From contig MKSO01000001.1 of the NCBI GenBank assembly GCA_001897305.1, forward strand, positions 180,001-212,000: 32,000 bases of DNA. Reading direction: 5' to 3'. Source of the DNA: Candidatus Saccharimonadota bacterium. GTDB lineage: Bacteria > Patescibacteriota > Saccharimonadia > Saccharimonadales > Saccharimonadaceae. The notes under the pieces are model-generated. The model had not been told where the DNA came from and ran no database searches. It was given only the letters and a program-made list of their open reading frames with translations. Both the position numbers and the translations under genes were made by a program. Below, piece after piece: positions 1,940-22,389 of the stretch (position 1 is its first letter; every line of letters starts with the position of its first letter).

Positions 1940-4900
1940 ATGAACCGCAAAGCCCTACTGCCAGTCTTCGTCTCGCTTGGTATTTTTGTTGTTATTTTTG
2001 GGGTTGTGGCGCTGTATCTTTGGAACGCAAGCCGGCAGGATGTAAAATCAACGGCCGACCAATCTGTCACTACAGTGAAGGGGCTTCAAGACCTTCAAGT
2101 TATTGACCAGCCTGTTTCACCAACGAAGCAAGTGATAGGTGGTGATTTAAAGGTAACGGGTAATGTCAGCATTATCGATGGTCTTTCAAGTTCATCACTA
2201 CAGCTTACACCGGTTACTAACCCAGCCGGCCTTCGTACCGGTCAGCTTTACACGAATACCGATAATAACCTGTACTACTACGACGGTAGGGTTTCATCGA
2301 ACATTTCAGGCGGTTTAGCGACTGCTCGAGTAGACATTAACCAACTTCAGCAAGAAACTGCTCAATTTCTGAACCGTCCAGAGGGTGTGCTCACACTACA
2401 GGGTCAGTCGGGTAATGTCGTACTGGCTGGTTCTGATGGAATTGCTATTTCTGGAACAACCATTACAAATAATGGCGTGCTTACTGTACAGGGTCGGGCT
2501 GGTAATGTTCAGTTCGTAAGCGGTAACGGCATCGATGTAACGGGAACAACCATTAATAATACAGGCGTCACAAGCTTGGGTGGTCAGAACGGCACTGTCG
2601 CTTTGGGCACTGGGCTCAGTATCAGCAACGGCACACTAGTGAACACAGGAATTACTCAACTTATCTCGGGTAGTTCCGATTTGATCGTTTCGAATGTAGG
2701 TGGCGGTGCCTACACAATTAGTTATGCCGGTTCCGGGGTGGGTGGTACGGTCGCTTTGGCACCAAATACATCCCAGGAAGATTCTAGTAATAATGCATCA
2801 ATCGCTTTTAACAAAACGGGTCTCGGCAACTTAATTCAAATTTCTACTGGTACTAATGCTTCGAATAAATTCGTCGTCGATCAGTCAGGTGCAATTATTA
2901 ACGGAAGCATTAACTTTAGCCAGGTAACAGGTGTGCCGAGTCTTGTTAATTCTATTGCGGGCCTTACGGGTACCGTAGGAGTTGGTGCTGGACTGGCTGT
3001 AAATGGTGGCCAGCTGGTTGCTACGACGGCTGTGAATAATCTTGTAGGAACTGCGAACCAAGTAAATGTATCGGGGAGCGGTACGCTTACTCTATCGTTG
3101 CCGCAAAGCATCGCGACGACATCTTCGCCGACTTTCGCCGGCTTGACGCTCACGAATGCACTAACTGTAGGGAACGGTGGTACTGGTGCATCGACTGCTG
3201 CGGGGGCTCGTACTAACCTAGGAGCGGCGGCAAGTGGTGTAAATAATGACATTACTTCGCTTACTGGTTTAACCACGGCGTTGTCGGTTGCCCAGGGTGG
3301 TATTGGTACGACGTCTCTTACTCAAAATGGTGTGCTTATTGGCAATGGCTCTGCCGCCGTGTCTACACTTAATGCGGCGAGTGCTAATCAGTGTCTTGTG
3401 TCTGGTGCGGGTGGCGTATTAAGCTTCCAAACCTGTCCGGGTGCAGGCAGCGTCACTAGCGTAAATGGTAAAAATGGTGCAGTGACGATAGCGGGCGTAG
3501 ACCCAACAAGTATTGATTCAACCGGTTCATCAATTGTTATTCGCGATGCCTCGTATACAACTAAGGGCTTAGCTTCATTTAATAGTACAAACTTCAGCGT
3601 ACTAAACGGAAGTGTTACTACTGCGCAAAATATTAATACAGGCGCTACTCCAACCTTTGCTGGCTTAAACCTCACTGCGGCATTAAGCACTGCTAACGGT
3701 GGAACGGGTCGTACGAGCTTTACGGCCAATTCGTTGCTCGTAGGCCAGGGCGGAGCTGCGCTTGGAACGGTTGGAACAACCATTGATGGGCAGTGTTTAG
3801 TGTCAGGAACTGGCGGGGTGCTTGGTTTTGCATCGTGTCCCGGTTCAAATGGCGTAGCTAGTTTGAACGGGCTTACAGGGGCGGTTAGCCTTAGCACAGT
3901 AACTGCTTCAAGCTTGTCGCAGACCGGGAATGTTATTACTGTTCGCGACGCAAGCGACACCATAAAGGGGCTTGCTGCATTTAATAGCAGCAACCTAGTC
4001 GTAACGAACGGGGTTGTAAATACTGCGCAAAATATTAATACGTCGGCTACGCCTACTTTCGCCGGACTTTCACTTGATACTGCGCTTGCGGTTACTAGTG
4101 GTGGTACTGGCCGTAATACGCTAACCGCTAATAGTCTTTTGATAGGAAATGGTACGGGCGCAGTGTCTATGTTAAGTGCGCCAACGGCCGGCTTGTGTCT
4201 TACTTCTGGCACTGGCGGGGTGTTGAGCTTCGTCACTTGTCCGGGTACTGCGGTTGTAAATACGCTTAACGGACAAAGTGGTGATATTACACTTACTGCT
4301 GCAGATCCGTCAAGTATTACTACGACCGGCGCAACTATCTCGATTCGTGACGCTTCGTATACAAATAAGGGCTTGGCTTCATTTAATGGCAGTAACTTCA
4401 GTGTTACAAATGGTGCTGTTAATACCATTCAGGATATCGCAACAACCGCAACGCCGACCTTTGAGGGCTTAACTCTTACCAGCGCTTTGGGTGTGACGAG
4501 TGGCGGTACTGGTGCAACGAATTTTGCGGCTAATAGCCTCCTTATTGGACAGGGGACTGCAGCGGTGAGTACATTAGGTACGTCGACGGCTGGTCAGTGT
4601 CTTATTTCTGGTACGGGTGGGTATCTATCGTTCTCGGCTTGCCCTGGAAGTAACGGCGTTGCCAGCCTTAATGGGCTGCTCGGAGCTTTGACGGTCAAGG
4701 GTGTGAGTGCCTCTAGCGTGCTTTCAACGGGTTCAACTATTACTATCGCTGATGCAACGGACACGGTAAAGGGCCTTGCCGCATTTAATAGCAGTAACCT
4801 AGTCGTAACAAACGGGGTTGTAAATACTGTTCAGGACATTTCAGTAAATGCGACACCAACTTTCGCCAGCCTTACGCTCTCTAGCCCGCTAGCTGTTAGT

Positions 4901-17750: not shown

Positions 17751-19553
17751 ATGGCCGAAAAAGTGTTATCGATTGCCAATTCAATTACCGTTGGCGAGCT
17801 CGCTGAGGTGTTAAACTTACCCGTAACAACCCTTATTGGGGAGCTTTTCAAAAACGGTATCGCTGCAACTATTAACCAGCGAATTGATTTTGAAACAGCG
17901 ACTATTATTGTGGACGAGCTTGGCCTCGACGTTGAGCTACAAAAAAAGGAAGCCAACGCCGCCGGTTCAGAGCGCGTTAAGCGAGAACTCACCGACAAAG
18001 CCGTTGACCGCCCGCCAATCGTAGCTGTCATGGGTCACGTTGACCATGGTAAAACCAGCTTACTCGATTCTATTCTTGGCCAGAAAGTAGTAGAAGGTGA
18101 AGCTGGCGGTATTACCCAACATATTAGCGCCTACCAAACAGTTCGTAATGGCCGTCCCATTACCTTACTTGATACCCCTGGCCACGAAGCCTTCGCTGCC
18201 TTGCGCCAACACGGGGCAACCCTTACTGACGTGGTTATTATCGTCGTTGCAGCCGACGATGGTGTGAAGCCGCAAACTATCGAGGCAATCCGTTTTGCCC
18301 GTACTGCCAACGCAAAAATCGTCGTTGCTATTAACAAGATCGACAAAGAAGCCGCCAACCCACAGCTGGTGAAGACCCAGCTTGCCACTGAACACAATTT
18401 GAACCCAGAAGAATGGGGTGGTGATACCGTTATGGTCGAGGTCAGTGCTAAAACTGGCCAAAATATCGACAAGTTGCTTGATATGGTACTGTTGGTGGCT
18501 GATATTGAAGAGTTAAAGGCTGAAATTGATGGTGCTGCTGAAGGGTTGGTTATTGAAGCTCACATGGAGACTGGCCGCGGTGCAGTGGTTGGCCTTTTGG
18601 TAGAGCAGGGTGTTGTTAAGCCGGGTGCTTTCTTGGTGGCGGGTACTACCTACGGTAAGGTACGCACCTTGCAAGATTTCGCCGGTAAGACTATTAAAGA
18701 AGCTGGCCCATCGACCCCAATTACCGTTACGGGTTTTAAAGAAGTACCACAGTTTGGTGATGTCTTCGAAGTAGTAAAGAATGAAAAAGAAGCTCGTGCC
18801 AAAGCAACAACCACACGTTTAGAGCGCGAAGCCAATGCTGCCAGCACCAACGTTACCGGTGCCGACCTTCTAAAGCTTATGACCCAAAAGCATGAAGCGG
18901 AGGACTTTAATGTTATTATTAAAGCCGACGTTCAGGGCTCACTAACCTCAGTTATCGATAGCCTTAAATTGATCGAAACCAATGGGGAAGTGTCGCTACA
19001 TGTAGTGAGTAGCGGTGTCGGTAATATTACCGAAAACGACGTTCGCCTGGCTAATGATGGCAAAACGGTTATTTATGGGTTTAACGTTGACTTACCGCCA
19101 GCCGTAAAACAACTGGCTACCCGCGAACGCGCTGAAGTTCGTTTATACAAGGTTATTTACGAACTGCTCGACGATGCCAAAAACTCAATGGAAAAACTAC
19201 TCGCCCCTGAGGTAGTAGAAACTGAAGTAGGAACGCTTGAAGTAAAGGGTGTCTTCCGTACTATGAAAGACGAAGTTATCGCCGGTGGCTTGGTAAAAAG
19301 CGGTAAAGTAACCCCAGGCTTATTAGTCCGCATGAAACGCGGTAAAGTATCGGCCTTTGGTGCCGATGATGCCACGGCTGAAATTCTTGGTGAAGCCGAA
19401 ATTACTGGTTTGCAACGCGAGAAAATCGAAGCCAAAGAAGTCTTTGAAGGTGACCTGTGTGGGCTTAATCTAAAAACCCACAAGAAAACCTTGCTGGAAA
19501 TTGGCGATACGCTCGAATTCTTTACGCGCGAAGTTGTTGAGCGACATTTGTAA
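17751..19553 (+). CDS. infB: Translation initiation factor IF-2 (short form, 600 aa)
   Basis: AAAAGGAG Shine-Dalgarno sequence. G-domain motifs are [25 protein letters not shown] and SAKTG. They are followed by the beta-barrel and C-terminal domains typical of IF-2. Confidence 0.96.
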
Positions 19554-19629
19554 TAATCGTTGAAACCCGGTGCGAAGCCAGTCTGAAAATGAATGATGGT
19601 TAGGTGTATTTCGTATATTCTTACAAATA

Positions 19630-19656
19630 AAAAAGCACCCTTCGGGGTGTTTTTGC
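19630..19656 (+). terminator. Rho-independent terminator after infB
   Basis: aaaaagcaccc / ttcg / gggtgttttt, a GC stem with a UUCG-type loop and a T-run. Confidence 0.8.
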
Positions 19657-19735
19657 ATTCAGTTCTAATTAAGAGAGGTGCCGCCCGGGCACCGCGTTCC
19701 ACCATAAAGGTGTACTTGCGGTGCCCGAGGCGGAG

Positions 19736-19755
19736 CCCCTGTCACATGATCAGGA
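19736..19755. repeat. Left copy of the inverted repeat bracketing the high-GC gene
   Basis: The reverse complement of cccctgtcacatgatcagga is tcctgatCATgtgacagggg. This equals the right copy except for a 3-nt indel. It overlaps the TGA stop codon of the island gene. Confidence 0.7.
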
Positions 19756-20427
19756 CGACGCGGTGGGCGTGACGCCGACTTTGGCGAGCAGCGGGAGGAG
19801 GGTGTCCTTGCTCAGCTTCTTGTGGTCGTCCTCCGAGATCACCTTCACGGTGGTCTTCGAGATACCCGTCCGGATGTGCTCCTCCTTCATGTTGGCGATG
19901 GCCGTGGCGGTCGTCATGATCAGCGGCTTGATGTCGCTGATCTTGACCATGCCGGTCGGCGCGTCGCCGTTGGTGACCGCGTTCGCGTTGGCGGTGAGCT
20001 CGTCGTTCTTGCGACGCAGCTCGACCAGCTCCTTGGGAACACCGGTGGCATCCAGCTCGCTGTCCTTGATGTAGCCCGGGTGGTCCGGGACGATACCGCG
20101 GGCGACGTAGTTCTTGCGGGCGGGGGGCAGCGAGTCCAGCACGACGCGCAACGCGTCGGTGGGCTCGATCGAGGACGGCGAACTGCTGTCCAGACGAGCC
20201 TGGGTGGCAGCGCGGGTGTCCTCATCGACGAGACCGTCGATGAGCGCGGTGAGCGCGACGGCGATCTTCGGCGAGACGGTTCCGGCCTTCAGCAGGCTCT
20301 GGAGCTTGTTCGACGAGGCGAACAGTTCCAGGCGAGCGTCCGTCACGTTGGCGACGAGCTGCTGCTCGCCGCGCTCGGTGGCTGCGTCGAGCATGTCGAT
20401 GTCGGTGGTCGTGGTGGGAGTGGACAT
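19750..20427 (-). CDS. Hypothetical protein (225 aa) with actinobacterial-type codon usage; function unknown
   Basis: The start is the ATG at 20427, preceded by GAAAGGAA (the 25 codons upstream in the ORF track are probably not translated). Of the first 30 codons, 28 end in G or C, against 11/30 for the neighbouring gene at 20752. The protein has a Thr-rich N-terminus, a short ELVELRRKNDEL helix and an ISEDDHKKLSKDTLLPLLAKVGV tail. I do not recognise the family. Confidence 0.68.
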   Translation of the reverse strand: MSTPTTTTDIDMLDAATERGEQQLVANVTDARLELFASSNKLQSLLKAGTVSPKIAVALTALIDGLVDEDTRAATQARLDSSSPSSIEPTDALRVVLDSLPPARKNYVARGIVPDHPGYIKDSELDATGVPKELVELRRKNDELTANANAVTNGDAPTGMVKISDIKPLIMTTATAIANMKEEHIRTGISKTTVKVISEDDHKKLSKDTLLPLLAKVGVTPTASS

Positions 20428-20528
20428 TGTGTTTCCTTTCGTGGGGCGCGGTGCGCCGGGAGGGGTGAGACAATGTCGACACCTACGGAGGTGCCGACAC
20501 AAGTGTTAAGTTATAAGCTTGTGTGGCA

Positions 20529-20545
20529 TCCTGATGTGACAGGGG
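20529..20545. repeat. Right copy of the inverted repeat bracketing the high-GC gene
   Basis: tcctgatgtgacagggg matches the reverse complement of 19736-19755 at 17/17 positions apart from the 3-nt indel. It is followed directly by a perfect 9-bp hairpin, gtcgtgcga/atgga/tcgcacgac (20547-20569). Confidence 0.7.
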
Positions 20546-20711
20546 TGTCGTGCGAATGGATCGCACGACGTACCAGGGCTTATAAAAGCCACAGTATGTC
20601 GCGCGATCACATTTCACACCTTTTTAATGATCAGCGAGGGTATTGCACCTCACGTATGCATAGGATTATAGCACTTATTTGATTTTTTGTCAATAACCAT
20701 AAACAAATACA

Positions 20712-20740
20712 TTGACTTGCGAGTATAACTTTGCTATAAC
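20712..20740 (+). promoter_or_regulatory. Putative promoter of the 20752 gene
   Basis: TTGACT (20712-20717), a 17-nt spacer, then TATAAC (20735-20740) preceded by TGc. The ATG lies only 11 nt downstream, so the leader is very short or absent. Confidence 0.5.
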
Positions 20741-20751
20741 CAGGGGTAAGT

Positions 20752-22389
20752 ATGGAACTTACCGCTCCAGAACACCAAAATACCTCAAATAACCCAGAAA
20801 CGACCGTTGATAAAGAGGCAGCCCTTGCATACGCATTGGGTATTGATCAAATTGCCGATATGCGCGCTCGGCAGGTTAAAGCTTTTAACCAAGCGTGGGA
20901 AACCGCACAAGAAAATGGGGTAGGTATTGATGATCTGCTTATTGAAGCTAAAAATGCAGCTCGTTTAGTAGGTGATGAATATACTAGTAGCATTGTTGAT
21001 ACTGGTTTTTATGATGATGAAGTAGCAGATAGAGCAAAAGGTATCGTGGAGAAGTACTCTTTTCTTTCTATGTCCGAGCACGAATGGCGTCTTGGTAAAG
21101 TAGACAACGACGGGAATGTAGAGCGAAAAAGTGGGCGAGAACGCTTGAGTGATGATTCAGAAGAACTCTTACAATCTATTCCAGCCGGGGCTTCGCGTAC
21201 AGAAGCAGTTGATCCTTATATCGAAGCCGAACGAAATACGTTAGTACGGCTTCGTGAGGAAGTTGCTAAATTAAGCGCCAAACGCCAAGGTCGCCTATGG
21301 GGCGATGGTGGCGAAGCTTATAGTGAGGCAGTCAAGGCGTATAACGCTCAGGTTGTAAAACTTGGTAGACTCGAGAAAAAAGACATTATAGAAGACGAAA
21401 CCATCTCGGATGTTACTAAAAAAGCCGAGGTTGTCGGCTACCTGTTTCAAGAGCAGAATGAGCTGCGTAAAGCTTCGGTTGAGAAACTTGAAAATACAGC
21501 CGTTTCAAAGTTTGTTGAATTTATGAACAGAGGTAATATTGCTCAGCGAATCGCTAAAGGAGTTGCCTTGGGTGTAGGTGCCTCTGTTATAGCCGCCGGT
21601 GCGGGTGCTGTGATTGGTATCGCTGGCGGTGCTGCCATTGTTGGTGGTGCTACGGCGGGTATTATTGGTGCTGGACGCTTTGCTCGTGGTTTTGCCCGTA
21701 GTGACGCAAAACGTGGTCGCGGCCTGCAAGAACTGAACGATATTAGCCACTTAGAGAAAGCCCAGAATGTAGAAGTTGAGAATGATAACCATTTCGACGC
21801 CATCTTCTCGCATTTTCAAGAAAACTACGAGAAAGACATTGATAAAGAACAGGCTAAGCGACGCCGTTCGGTGATTGCCGGTTTGGGCGGTATCGCTCTT
21901 GGTACTGGAATCGGTGCGGCCGTTGCATTCGCAGCTGATGCCCTCCCTGGTGTAGAAGGTTGGTTCAACAGGGGTCCATCGTTACCATTTGCTGATCAGC
22001 ACGTCGGTGCCGAAGCCGCTCCACAAGATCATGGCGGGTACACTCAGGGTGAAGGCTCCCATGCTGAGACCGGCAGTCCCGACACGGGTCAGACCGGTAG
22101 CGGCGCCGAAGGTGAAGGTAAGACGTTCCTTCCTAACGCTGATACGGCTAACGAAATAGCTCCGACTTTTGACCCTAACTTTGTTATTGATAGTGGCGAG
22201 GGTGGTATTCATTTCTTCCAAGACCTCGGCTTAACCGAGTCTAACTGGTATGAAGTACAGAACGAATTACTACAAAACTATCCTAATGACTTCTACTCGA
22301 TGGGCGATGGTAATGTTGGCCTAGCACACCCCGGCCAACTTTCTCTGGAGGCGCAGCAATTTATTAAGGCGCGCTTTAGTTTACCATAA
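20752..22389 (+). CDS. Hypothetical membrane protein (545 aa) with two glycine-zipper TM regions
   Basis: It has a long helical, charged N-terminal half. The TM regions are GVALGVGASVIAAGAGAVIGIAGGAAIVGGATAGIIGAG and VIAGLGGIALGTGIGAAVAFAA. A G/T/E-rich linker and a C-terminal globular region (IDSGEGGIHFFQDLGL) follow. No family was recognised. Confidence 0.7.
   Translation: MELTAPEHQNTSNNPETTVDKEAALAYALGIDQIADMRARQVKAFNQAWETAQENGVGIDDLLIEAKNAARLVGDEYTSSIVDTGFYDDEVADRAKGIVEKYSFLSMSEHEWRLGKVDNDGNVERKSGRERLSDDSEELLQSIPAGASRTEAVDPYIEAERNTLVRLREEVAKLSAKRQGRLWGDGGEAYSEAVKAYNAQVVKLGRLEKKDIIEDETISDVTKKAEVVGYLFQEQNELRKASVEKLENTAVSKFVEFMNRGNIAQRIAKGVALGVGASVIAAGAGAVIGIAGGAAIVGGATAGIIGAGRFARGFARSDAKRGRGLQELNDISHLEKAQNVEVENDNHFDAIFSHFQENYEKDIDKEQAKRRRSVIAGLGGIALGTGIGAAVAFAADALPGVEGWFNRGPSLPFADQHVGAEAAPQDHGGYTQGEGSHAETGSPDTGQTGSGAEGEGKTFLPNADTANEIAPTFDPNFVIDSGEGGIHFFQDLGLTESNWYEVQNELLQNYPNDFYSMGDGNVGLAHPGQLSLEAQQFIKARFSLP

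Follow-up and report, generated by a model that had tools for sequence, protein, structure and literature searches.

The 32,000-nucleotide (nt) stretch of Saccharibacteria DNA analysed here, called the window in what follows, comes from a single-contig genome of 900 kb and carries, downstream of infB and on the opposite strand, a GC-rich gene for a 225-amino-acid (aa) protein that is bracketed by a short inverted repeat. It is proposed, with a probability of roughly 0.6, that this repeat is an RNA-level element, in which one copy, located in the 5' leader of the mRNA, would pair with the other, located at the start of the 3' untranslated region (UTR) of the same molecule, forming a helix with a span of about 800 nt. 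We infer that this helix forms in vivo and that it controls the stability or the translation of the message. The first-pass annotation of the window had offered pairing between the mRNA ends as one of three options, together with the termini of a mobile cassette and recombinase target sites, and it is the option favoured by the comparative evidence, that is, a core helix kept in nine of nine alleles, three two-sided changes within it and covarying stems beside it.

The nine alleles compared comprise those of five carrier species and four metagenomic ones; seven of them are clearly distinct, and protein identity falls to only 23-38% in the more distant ones. When the two copies of the repeat (hereafter the 5' box and the 3' box) are aligned by their invariant centres, a core helix of 8-9 base pairs (bp), CCCTGTCA / TGACAGGG, is found in every allele, and the recurrence of the repeat at homologous loci, on which the first-pass annotation had made its case depend, is thus borne out. 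Within this core, pairs have changed on both sides three times (C-G to G-C once, C-G to U-A twice) and never on one side only. The covariation score reaches 0.157, against 0.073 after shuffling (none of 500 shuffles attaining 0.157), and does not exceed 0.079 when the partners are slid. Beyond the core the pairing is allele-specific, the window allele and L011 continuing it with CAGGA:UCCUG across the stop codon, and L012, whose last codons are different, with ACUC:GAGU; in G014 and L045 a pairing of 10 bp is found. The helix is part of the minimum-energy fold of eight of the nine full-length transcripts, with a pair probability of 0.81-1.00.

In the window, the left copy of the repeat (19736-19755, plus strand, CCCCTGTCACATGATCAGGA) spans the stop codon of the minus-strand gene (TCA on the plus strand, 19750-19752) and the right copy (20529-20545, plus strand, TCCTGATGTGACAGGGG) lies at the other end of the segment so flanked, both being where they had first been reported. 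The two are mutually reverse-complementary over 12 perfect bases and, after a 3-nt CAT/ATG indel, over five further bases. The accompanying claim that chance could hardly account for such a match was right as to the reality of the repeat, which is conserved and covaries, but overstated its improbability in a single sequence: from 200 block shuffles, 32 kb of such sequence should hold about 1.7 perfect 12-mer inverted repeats with both copies within 1 kb, so that the repeat, taken in one sequence, is only suggestive. The five extra bases across one short indel are estimated to lower this expectation to about 0.02-0.03 per window, and a 17-mer with no more than three mismatches is expected 0.04 times per window. 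One 17-mer with three mismatches, TCCTTATTGGACAGGGG, is found at 4539-4555 (plus strand) and is most likely a chance match. It is the preservation of the core in nine divergent alleles, together with the compensatory changes, that shows the repeat at the gene not to be due to chance.

The unit to which the boxes belong has the same order of parts in all nine alleles, with a promoter, a leader of 190-260 nt, a ribosome-binding site (RBS), an open reading frame (ORF), the 3' box, a long hairpin and a terminator shared with infB. In the window allele these parts are as follows, the gene strand being the minus strand:

20665-20693, minus strand: sigma-70 promoter, TTGACA-N17-(TG)TATAAT, with 12 of 12 hexamer matches and an extended -10
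20634-20653, minus strand: 5'-terminal leader hairpin, GAGG...CCTC, from single-sequence folds, with a counterpart in the leaders of other alleles
20550-20619, minus strand: long leader hairpin P1, GATCGCGCGACAT...ACGTCGTGCGATC, with many compensatory changes
20547-20569, minus strand: 9-bp hairpin with a perfect stem, GTCGTGCGA-ATGGA-TCGCACGAC
20529-20545, minus strand: 5' box, the right copy of the repeat, CCCCTGTCACATCAGGA on the gene strand, predicted to pair with the 3' box or with a local partner, CCTG...CAGG
20493-20527, minus strand: AT-rich-loop hairpin, ACACAAG/CTTGTGT extended by GCC...GGC, its loop keeping a TTAAyA / TAnAAT-like motif
20475-20498, minus strand: leader hairpin upstream of the RBS, GTCGGCACC...GGTGTCGAC, pairs 200-205 with 216-221
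20432-20439, minus strand: RBS, AAAGGAAA, preceding the ATG at 20425-20427, with a comparable AAGGA/GAGG in all alleles
19750-20427, minus strand: orphan 225-aa gene, GC 0.66, GC at third codon positions (GC3) 0.92, its protein hypervariable between alleles
19736-19755, minus strand: 3' box, the left copy of the repeat, TCCTGATCATGTGACAGGGG on the gene strand, overlapping the stop codon
19677-19737, minus strand: long 3'-UTR hairpin, CCGCC(T)CGGGCACCGC-[A]AGTAC-inner stem-GGAAC-GCGGTGCCCGGGCGG, whose AGUA/GAA internal loop is similar to loop E
19628-19655, both strands: bidirectional intrinsic terminator, AAAAACACCCCGAAGGGTGCTTTTTT, common to this gene and the convergent infB

The promoter, with a -10 box of the TGCTATAAT type, lies in AT-rich DNA outside the inverted repeat and has a near-consensus equivalent in the nine alleles; it would drive the gene from a transcription start near 20658, which gives the window allele a leader of about 230 nt. 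In other alleles the stop codon is followed by the 3' box at a distance of 0-14 nt, or lies wholly or partly within it: the box includes the TGA in G021 and G004, and in G014 it starts with the last two bases of the TAA. The sequence following the 3' hairpin is CACCTCTCTTAATT. As to the terminator, it is kept in the alleles that carry the gene, and genomes without the gene have a different infB terminator.

The stems adjoining the boxes point to RNA. Consensus folding of the alignment gives 35 pairs in the leader, 21 of them with two-sided changes and one a conserved G·U, and 19 pairs in the 3' hairpin, nine of them compensatory, with several G·U pairs on the gene strand. Thus, the G·U in P1 (pair 69/116) occurs in six of eight alleles and is A-U in the other two, and pair 203/218 of the hairpin at 20475-20498 is G·U in four alleles and G-C in four. 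Taking into account that the opposite strand would carry A·C mismatches at these positions, the presence of G·U pairs on the gene strand only argues that the conserved molecule is RNA. Scored with a covariance model built on the 3' hairpin, the minus (gene) strand reaches 84 bits and the plus strand 29 bits, and the AGUA/GAA internal loop is kept in eight of nine alleles. Folding gave z-scores of -6.9 (leader), -5.6 (3' UTR) and -2.6 (coding sequence). With AGUA on one side and GAA opposite, the internal loop recalls the sarcin-ricin or loop E (bulged-G) motif, a likeness of sequence signature only.

The structures that had been noted around the repeat, namely the 9-bp hairpin (20547-20569), GGTGCC-N5-GGCACC (19677-19693) and the palindrome ACACAAG-N14-CTTGTGT (20497-20524), are all present, and the comparison of alleles suggests that they are covarying RNA stems. 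The stem of the 9-bp hairpin is replaced by GTCGTGT/ACACGAC in G004, GTCGTAG/CTACGAC in G014 and GTCGTAC/GTACGAC in G021; its 5' arm doubles as the 3' arm of P1, and the two structures are mutually exclusive because of this common arm. The palindrome, for which an operator function had been suggested, does not show conserved half-sites; it behaves as an RNA hairpin in which the AT-rich loop is conserved and the stem covaries, differing between alleles but staying paired (ACACAAG/CTTGTGT in the window, GGACAAT/ATTTGTTC in G014, CCGAAT/ATTCGG in L047 and CGAAC/GTTCG in G008). In the GGTGCC/GGCACC hairpin, the 3' arm of the long 3' hairpin is engaged in an alternative pairing. It was also observed that the segments 20547-20619 and 19677-19737 contain three-part arrangements (X, X' and X''), in which the middle arm pairs with either neighbour, and both alternatives covary between alleles (e.g., GCACC/GGTGC/GCACC as opposed to GCATC/GATGC/GCATC in G004), which suggests the existence of conformational switches at both ends of the mRNA.

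The concerted changes in the boxes can also be read in another way, which is the main rival to an end-to-end helix and is considered unlikely. The boxes would be inverted copies of one protein-recognition motif, acting on DNA (through looping or repression) or on RNA without pairing with each other, and the protein recognising them could be the encoded one itself. The near invariance of the 6-nt centre, CTGT(C/T)A / T(G/A)ACAG, fits such a motif, a drifting binding specificity also predicts concerted changes in both copies, and there is a weak likeness between the C-terminus of the protein and helix-hairpin motifs that bind DNA (one allele matching Lsr2_DNA-bd with an expectation value, E, of 0.17, which is not significant). 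However, a fixed motif would not be expected to be continued past the core by complementary sequences that are different in each allele; moreover, changes at three positions have been complementary and none one-sided, and both boxes abut covarying RNA hairpins, with a spacing of 0-3 nt.

Several points weigh against the long-range helix. In the fold of G008 a local hairpin is preferred over it, and with shuffled UTRs 14 of 60 minimum-energy folds join the leader to the 3' UTR by a stack of 8 bp or more, and two of 60 by one of 11 bp or more; because of this control, single-sequence folding is taken as weak evidence, and the weight rests on conservation and covariation. The long-range helix is devoid of any G·U pair of its own, and its concerted changes could equally be expected of two copies of a protein-recognition motif. 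Furthermore, about seven independent alleles are effectively sampled, and the kinship among alleles inflates the shuffle tests. Since the helix does not directly sequester the RBS, a translational effect is conjecture, and both ends of the transcript, like the helix in vivo, are predicted.

If the boxes do pair with each other, they would enclose the RBS and the whole ORF in one domain, stacked between two stable hairpins, and this closed form would constitute a nuclease-resistant, stored state of the mRNA. The domain could be opened by two routes, either by a ribosome that unwinds the helix on terminating at the stop codon, or by a switch of the 5' box to the short partner (4-8 bp) that is found directly downstream of it in every allele. 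The existence of this alternative partner makes a closed-to-open switch possible, and the logic would be that of the tac/fbi/ucb switch of the hok mRNA, in which tac/fbi pairing closes the molecule 5' to 3' and an alternative local partner is available (PMC9841398). As in hok/Sok-type toxin mRNAs, a covarying helix would tie the 5' leader to the 3' UTR, closing the whole mRNA, and as in tac/ucb pairing, the 5' element has a local alternative. Unlike hok, which encodes a hydrophobic peptide of fewer than 60 aa, the ORF specifies a 225-aa hydrophilic protein, the span is of about 800 nt and the RBS is not visibly sequestered by the helix. No antisense RNA gene was found, the opposite strand within the unit being free of promoter-like sites, which is weak evidence. 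Thus, the unit shares the helix with hok-like type I toxin-antitoxin systems, but it is not assigned to the hok family, because its ORF is large and hydrophilic and neither a small hydrophobic toxin nor a cis antisense gene was found.

Other natural RNAs offer partial parallels. The aapA mRNAs of Helicobacter show an analogous long-distance interaction, and in Staphylococcus aureus the icaR mRNA has a 3' UTR that base-pairs with its own Shine-Dalgarno region, creating an RNase III site. The unit is similar to icaR in that the two UTRs of an mRNA for a protein of ordinary size base-pair; unlike icaR, it has about 100 nt between the 5' box and the RBS downstream, and the helix is only 8-17 bp long. 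In the precursors of 16S and 23S rRNA, processing stems of at least 20 bp, which are substrates of RNase III, form around non-coding RNA; here too flanking sequences would pair and enclose a long functional segment, but this segment is a translated ORF. Few cases of end-to-end pairing have been documented in bacterial mRNAs, mostly for tiny toxin genes, and in the present one the closing helix, supported by the comparison of alleles, would enclose an ORF of full size. The elaborate leader and 3' UTR match no catalogued RNA family: a search of Rfam over 19500-20800 returned only two sub-threshold chance matches (E 0.2-0.35), far below gathering scores. No description of this locus was found in the literature, and the organism belongs to the candidate phyla radiation, in which post-transcriptional control is almost unexplored.

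A reading at the DNA level that had been put forward for the repeat is that its copies are recombinase crossover sites, at which the segment of about 0.8 kb between them (19756-20528) would be inverted, uncoupling the gene from its external promoter and giving rise to phase variation. The orientation of the locus makes this quite improbable. The identical protein is carried by 24 independently assembled contigs (eight of the nine loci shown match the 2.3-kb region of the window at 100%, and the ninth, L010, at 99.6%), and in 23 further contigs with an identical infB the block invariably lies between infB and a 545-aa gene and is oriented alike; neither an empty site nor a flipped copy was found among these approximately 47 contigs, and the nine alleles also agree in their orientation relative to infB, with the limit that assemblies show the majority form only. 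Sequencing runs with assemblies containing the locus include SRR5626983, SRR5487609, SRR3901707 and SRR36410686. Short repeats would be no obstacle to inversion, since inverted repeats of 9 bp suffice for known switches such as fimS, and the hypervariability of the protein is of the kind often seen in phase-variable surface or interaction factors. The genome also encodes two tyrosine recombinases (at 132.7 and 765.5 kb) and two serine recombinases (at 569.2 and 884.8 kb). With the unit at 199.7 kb, the nearest of them is about 67 kb away, so that the statement that the window holds no recombinase stands; as for the enzymes that were to be looked for elsewhere in the genome, recombinases do exist, all of them distant, and a Y1 transposase is absent. 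The comparison with fimS (FimB/FimE) and Hin/hix is therefore limited to a segment of about 0.3-1 kb lying between short inverted repeats; unlike those systems, the locus is uniform in the assemblies, has no adjacent recombinase and has its promoter outside the segment, and the G·U pairs and strand-specific covariation of the adjoining stems point to RNA.

It had likewise been suggested that the repeats are the termini of a non-autonomous mobile cassette, by which a foreign high-GC gene would have been introduced from a host actinobacterium or from a phage of that host. This possibility, judged very improbable, has composition on its side, since GC rises sharply from 0.45 to 0.66 and GC3 is 0.92, against 0.38-0.46 in the neighbouring genes. 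The distribution is patchy too: a scan of the DNA downstream of infB found a comparable high-GC gene in five of the 39 species of the genus, whose carriers are scattered on the infB tree, so that at least three gains or losses are required, and one of these carriers is the cultured strain TM7i, whose host, Leucobacter, is a high-GC actinobacterium. Against this, the unit is present as a single copy, with no others in the 900-kb genome, and always at the same locus, and the promoter, two leader hairpins, the 3' hairpin and the terminator lie outside the repeats, which are thus internal to a conserved unit. When the genome was scanned with the covariance model of the 3' hairpin, no match besides the known copy was obtained, and 150 further genomes of the family gave no match; on reading the boundaries no target-site duplication was seen. 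With one genome copy, no variable insertion sites and repeats that are not termini, the unit does not fit the class of miniature inverted-repeat transposable elements and related cassettes. An integron attC cassette was also discarded, as the gene has its own consensus promoter and the 3' hairpin is not bounded by RYYYAAC / GTTRRRY core sites, no search having been aimed at an integron integrase.

The label of foreign gene itself has become doubtful, since the donor searches were negative and the unit appears to be a resident of the genus. Only four of 1.84 billion representative proteins were matched in a profile search, all of them tracing to this Saccharibacteria locus; a word-indexed search with a nine-allele profile gave nothing outside Saccharibacteria; and the pattern of the 3' hairpin was found in only three Saccharibacteria among 185,579 GTDB species genomes and in no viral contig. 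Neither a homologue nor the RNA motif thus appears outside Saccharibacteria in these collections, and no actinobacterial or phage homologue bearing the same repeat, as had been envisaged, was found among the proteins, species genomes and viral contigs searched; horizontal acquisition from either source is not supported, for want of a homologue in a plausible donor. Relatives are very few in both the word-indexed and the exhaustive protein searches, and all lie at the same locus. Pattern scans of JGI metagenomes gave nothing outside Saccharibacteria either, four of the five matches being unrelated high-GC coding DNA or an unrelated contig. Among the sequences fitting the 3'-hairpin pattern is a GC-rich stretch of an unrelated AT-rich metagenome contig (L053:565-617, JAAUXV010048725.1), GCACCGCAAGTAC...GGAACGCGGTGC, which could be a chance match or a distant relative of the motif.

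The gene lies in a block of 0.61-0.70 GC (200-nt windows) within DNA of about 0.45 GC and, in every allele, between infB and the 545-aa ORF. This neighbour (20752-22389, plus strand), which is transcribed divergently from the island gene, encodes a glycine-rich membrane protein and has a native composition, with a GC3 of 0.38. Full-length homologues of the 545-aa protein exist only in the four other island-bearing species, other species sharing only the C-terminal 60-190 residues, and because of this restriction the island gene and this particular 545-aa type appear to constitute a resident two-gene variable module of this Saccharibacteria genus. The module appears to be exchanged between strains by homologous recombination through the conserved DNA that flanks it (infB and the C-terminal domain of the neighbour) and not through the repeat. 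As the gene travels with one type of variable membrane protein, the pair is a candidate host-interaction module, and the availability of TM7i, which has the allele KI440_03460 of CP075337.1, in culture with its host Leucobacter aridocollis makes these ideas testable.

The GC3 of the island gene, surveyed in the window allele and in L011, L012, L025, L026, L035, L044, L045 and L047, is 0.85-0.95 in eight alleles, and it is 0.69 in G008. Alleles with 23-38% identity keep this high GC3 and co-occur with one neighbour-gene type of native composition, and a long residence is argued on these grounds, which suggests that the unit is resident rather than recently acquired. It is a compositional puzzle that alleles diverged to about 30% identity should keep high GC3 in genomes with a GC3 of about 0.4. 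GC-biased gene conversion is an unlikely cause because the co-varying neighbour has a GC3 of 0.38, and selection on the message appears instead to keep GC3 high at this locus. Over the whole gene the ratio of non-synonymous to synonymous substitution rates (dN/dS) is about 1, and in the C-terminal third it is 1.7-2.3; dS is low, and selection seems to act on synonymous sites. GC islands are usually assumed to mark a recent transfer; the high GC3 of these diverged alleles challenges this view and suggests selection on the mRNA itself. It is barely credible, at present, that a GC3 of about 0.9 and a nuclease-proof closed mRNA have been selected to match the high-GC actinobacterial host, with the message or the gene acting or being translated in the host cell; if true, this would be an exported nucleic-acid effector of an epibiont.

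The protein, of 211-277 aa across alleles, is hydrophilic and predicted to be helical, with a coiled-coil-like middle. Profile searches of Pfam, PHROGs and the PDB returned coiled-coil noise only, and AlphaFold2 models are poor, with mean confidence scores (pLDDT) of 54 and 58 in two runs. The codon-position GC of the ORF is 0.60 / 0.45 / 0.92; since the ORF is open in all nine alleles and preceded in each by an RBS, and given this codon-position pattern, the idea that the locus encodes a large non-coding RNA instead of a gene was ruled out. In some public assemblies (L058) a 286-aa antisense ORF (19822-20682, plus strand) is annotated in place of the 225-aa gene; as codon-position GC and conservation favour the minus-strand gene, this call is probably a mis-annotation typical of high-GC3 genes.

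The window allele and L012 share 92% identity in the leader and 90% in the 3' UTR, with 81% in the coding sequence, and this stronger conservation of the UTRs counts in favour of the RNA-level reading. The L011 gene (L011:4199-4864) is a mosaic, in which the 5' half (the first 115 codons approximately) is identical to the window allele and the 3' half resembles L012; this indicates a within-gene recombination between strains, with a predicted breakpoint near window position 20083. Between its terminator and infB the same allele has about 67 additional nt (L011:5057-5124, corresponding approximately to window 19555-19625); this segment forms with the adjoining sequence a 17-nt inverted repeat, GAAATACGCCTAGCTAT / ATAGCTAGGCGTATTTC, and its counterpart in L047, downstream of the terminator, appears in reverse orientation. 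This extra segment may be a small hairpin insertion.

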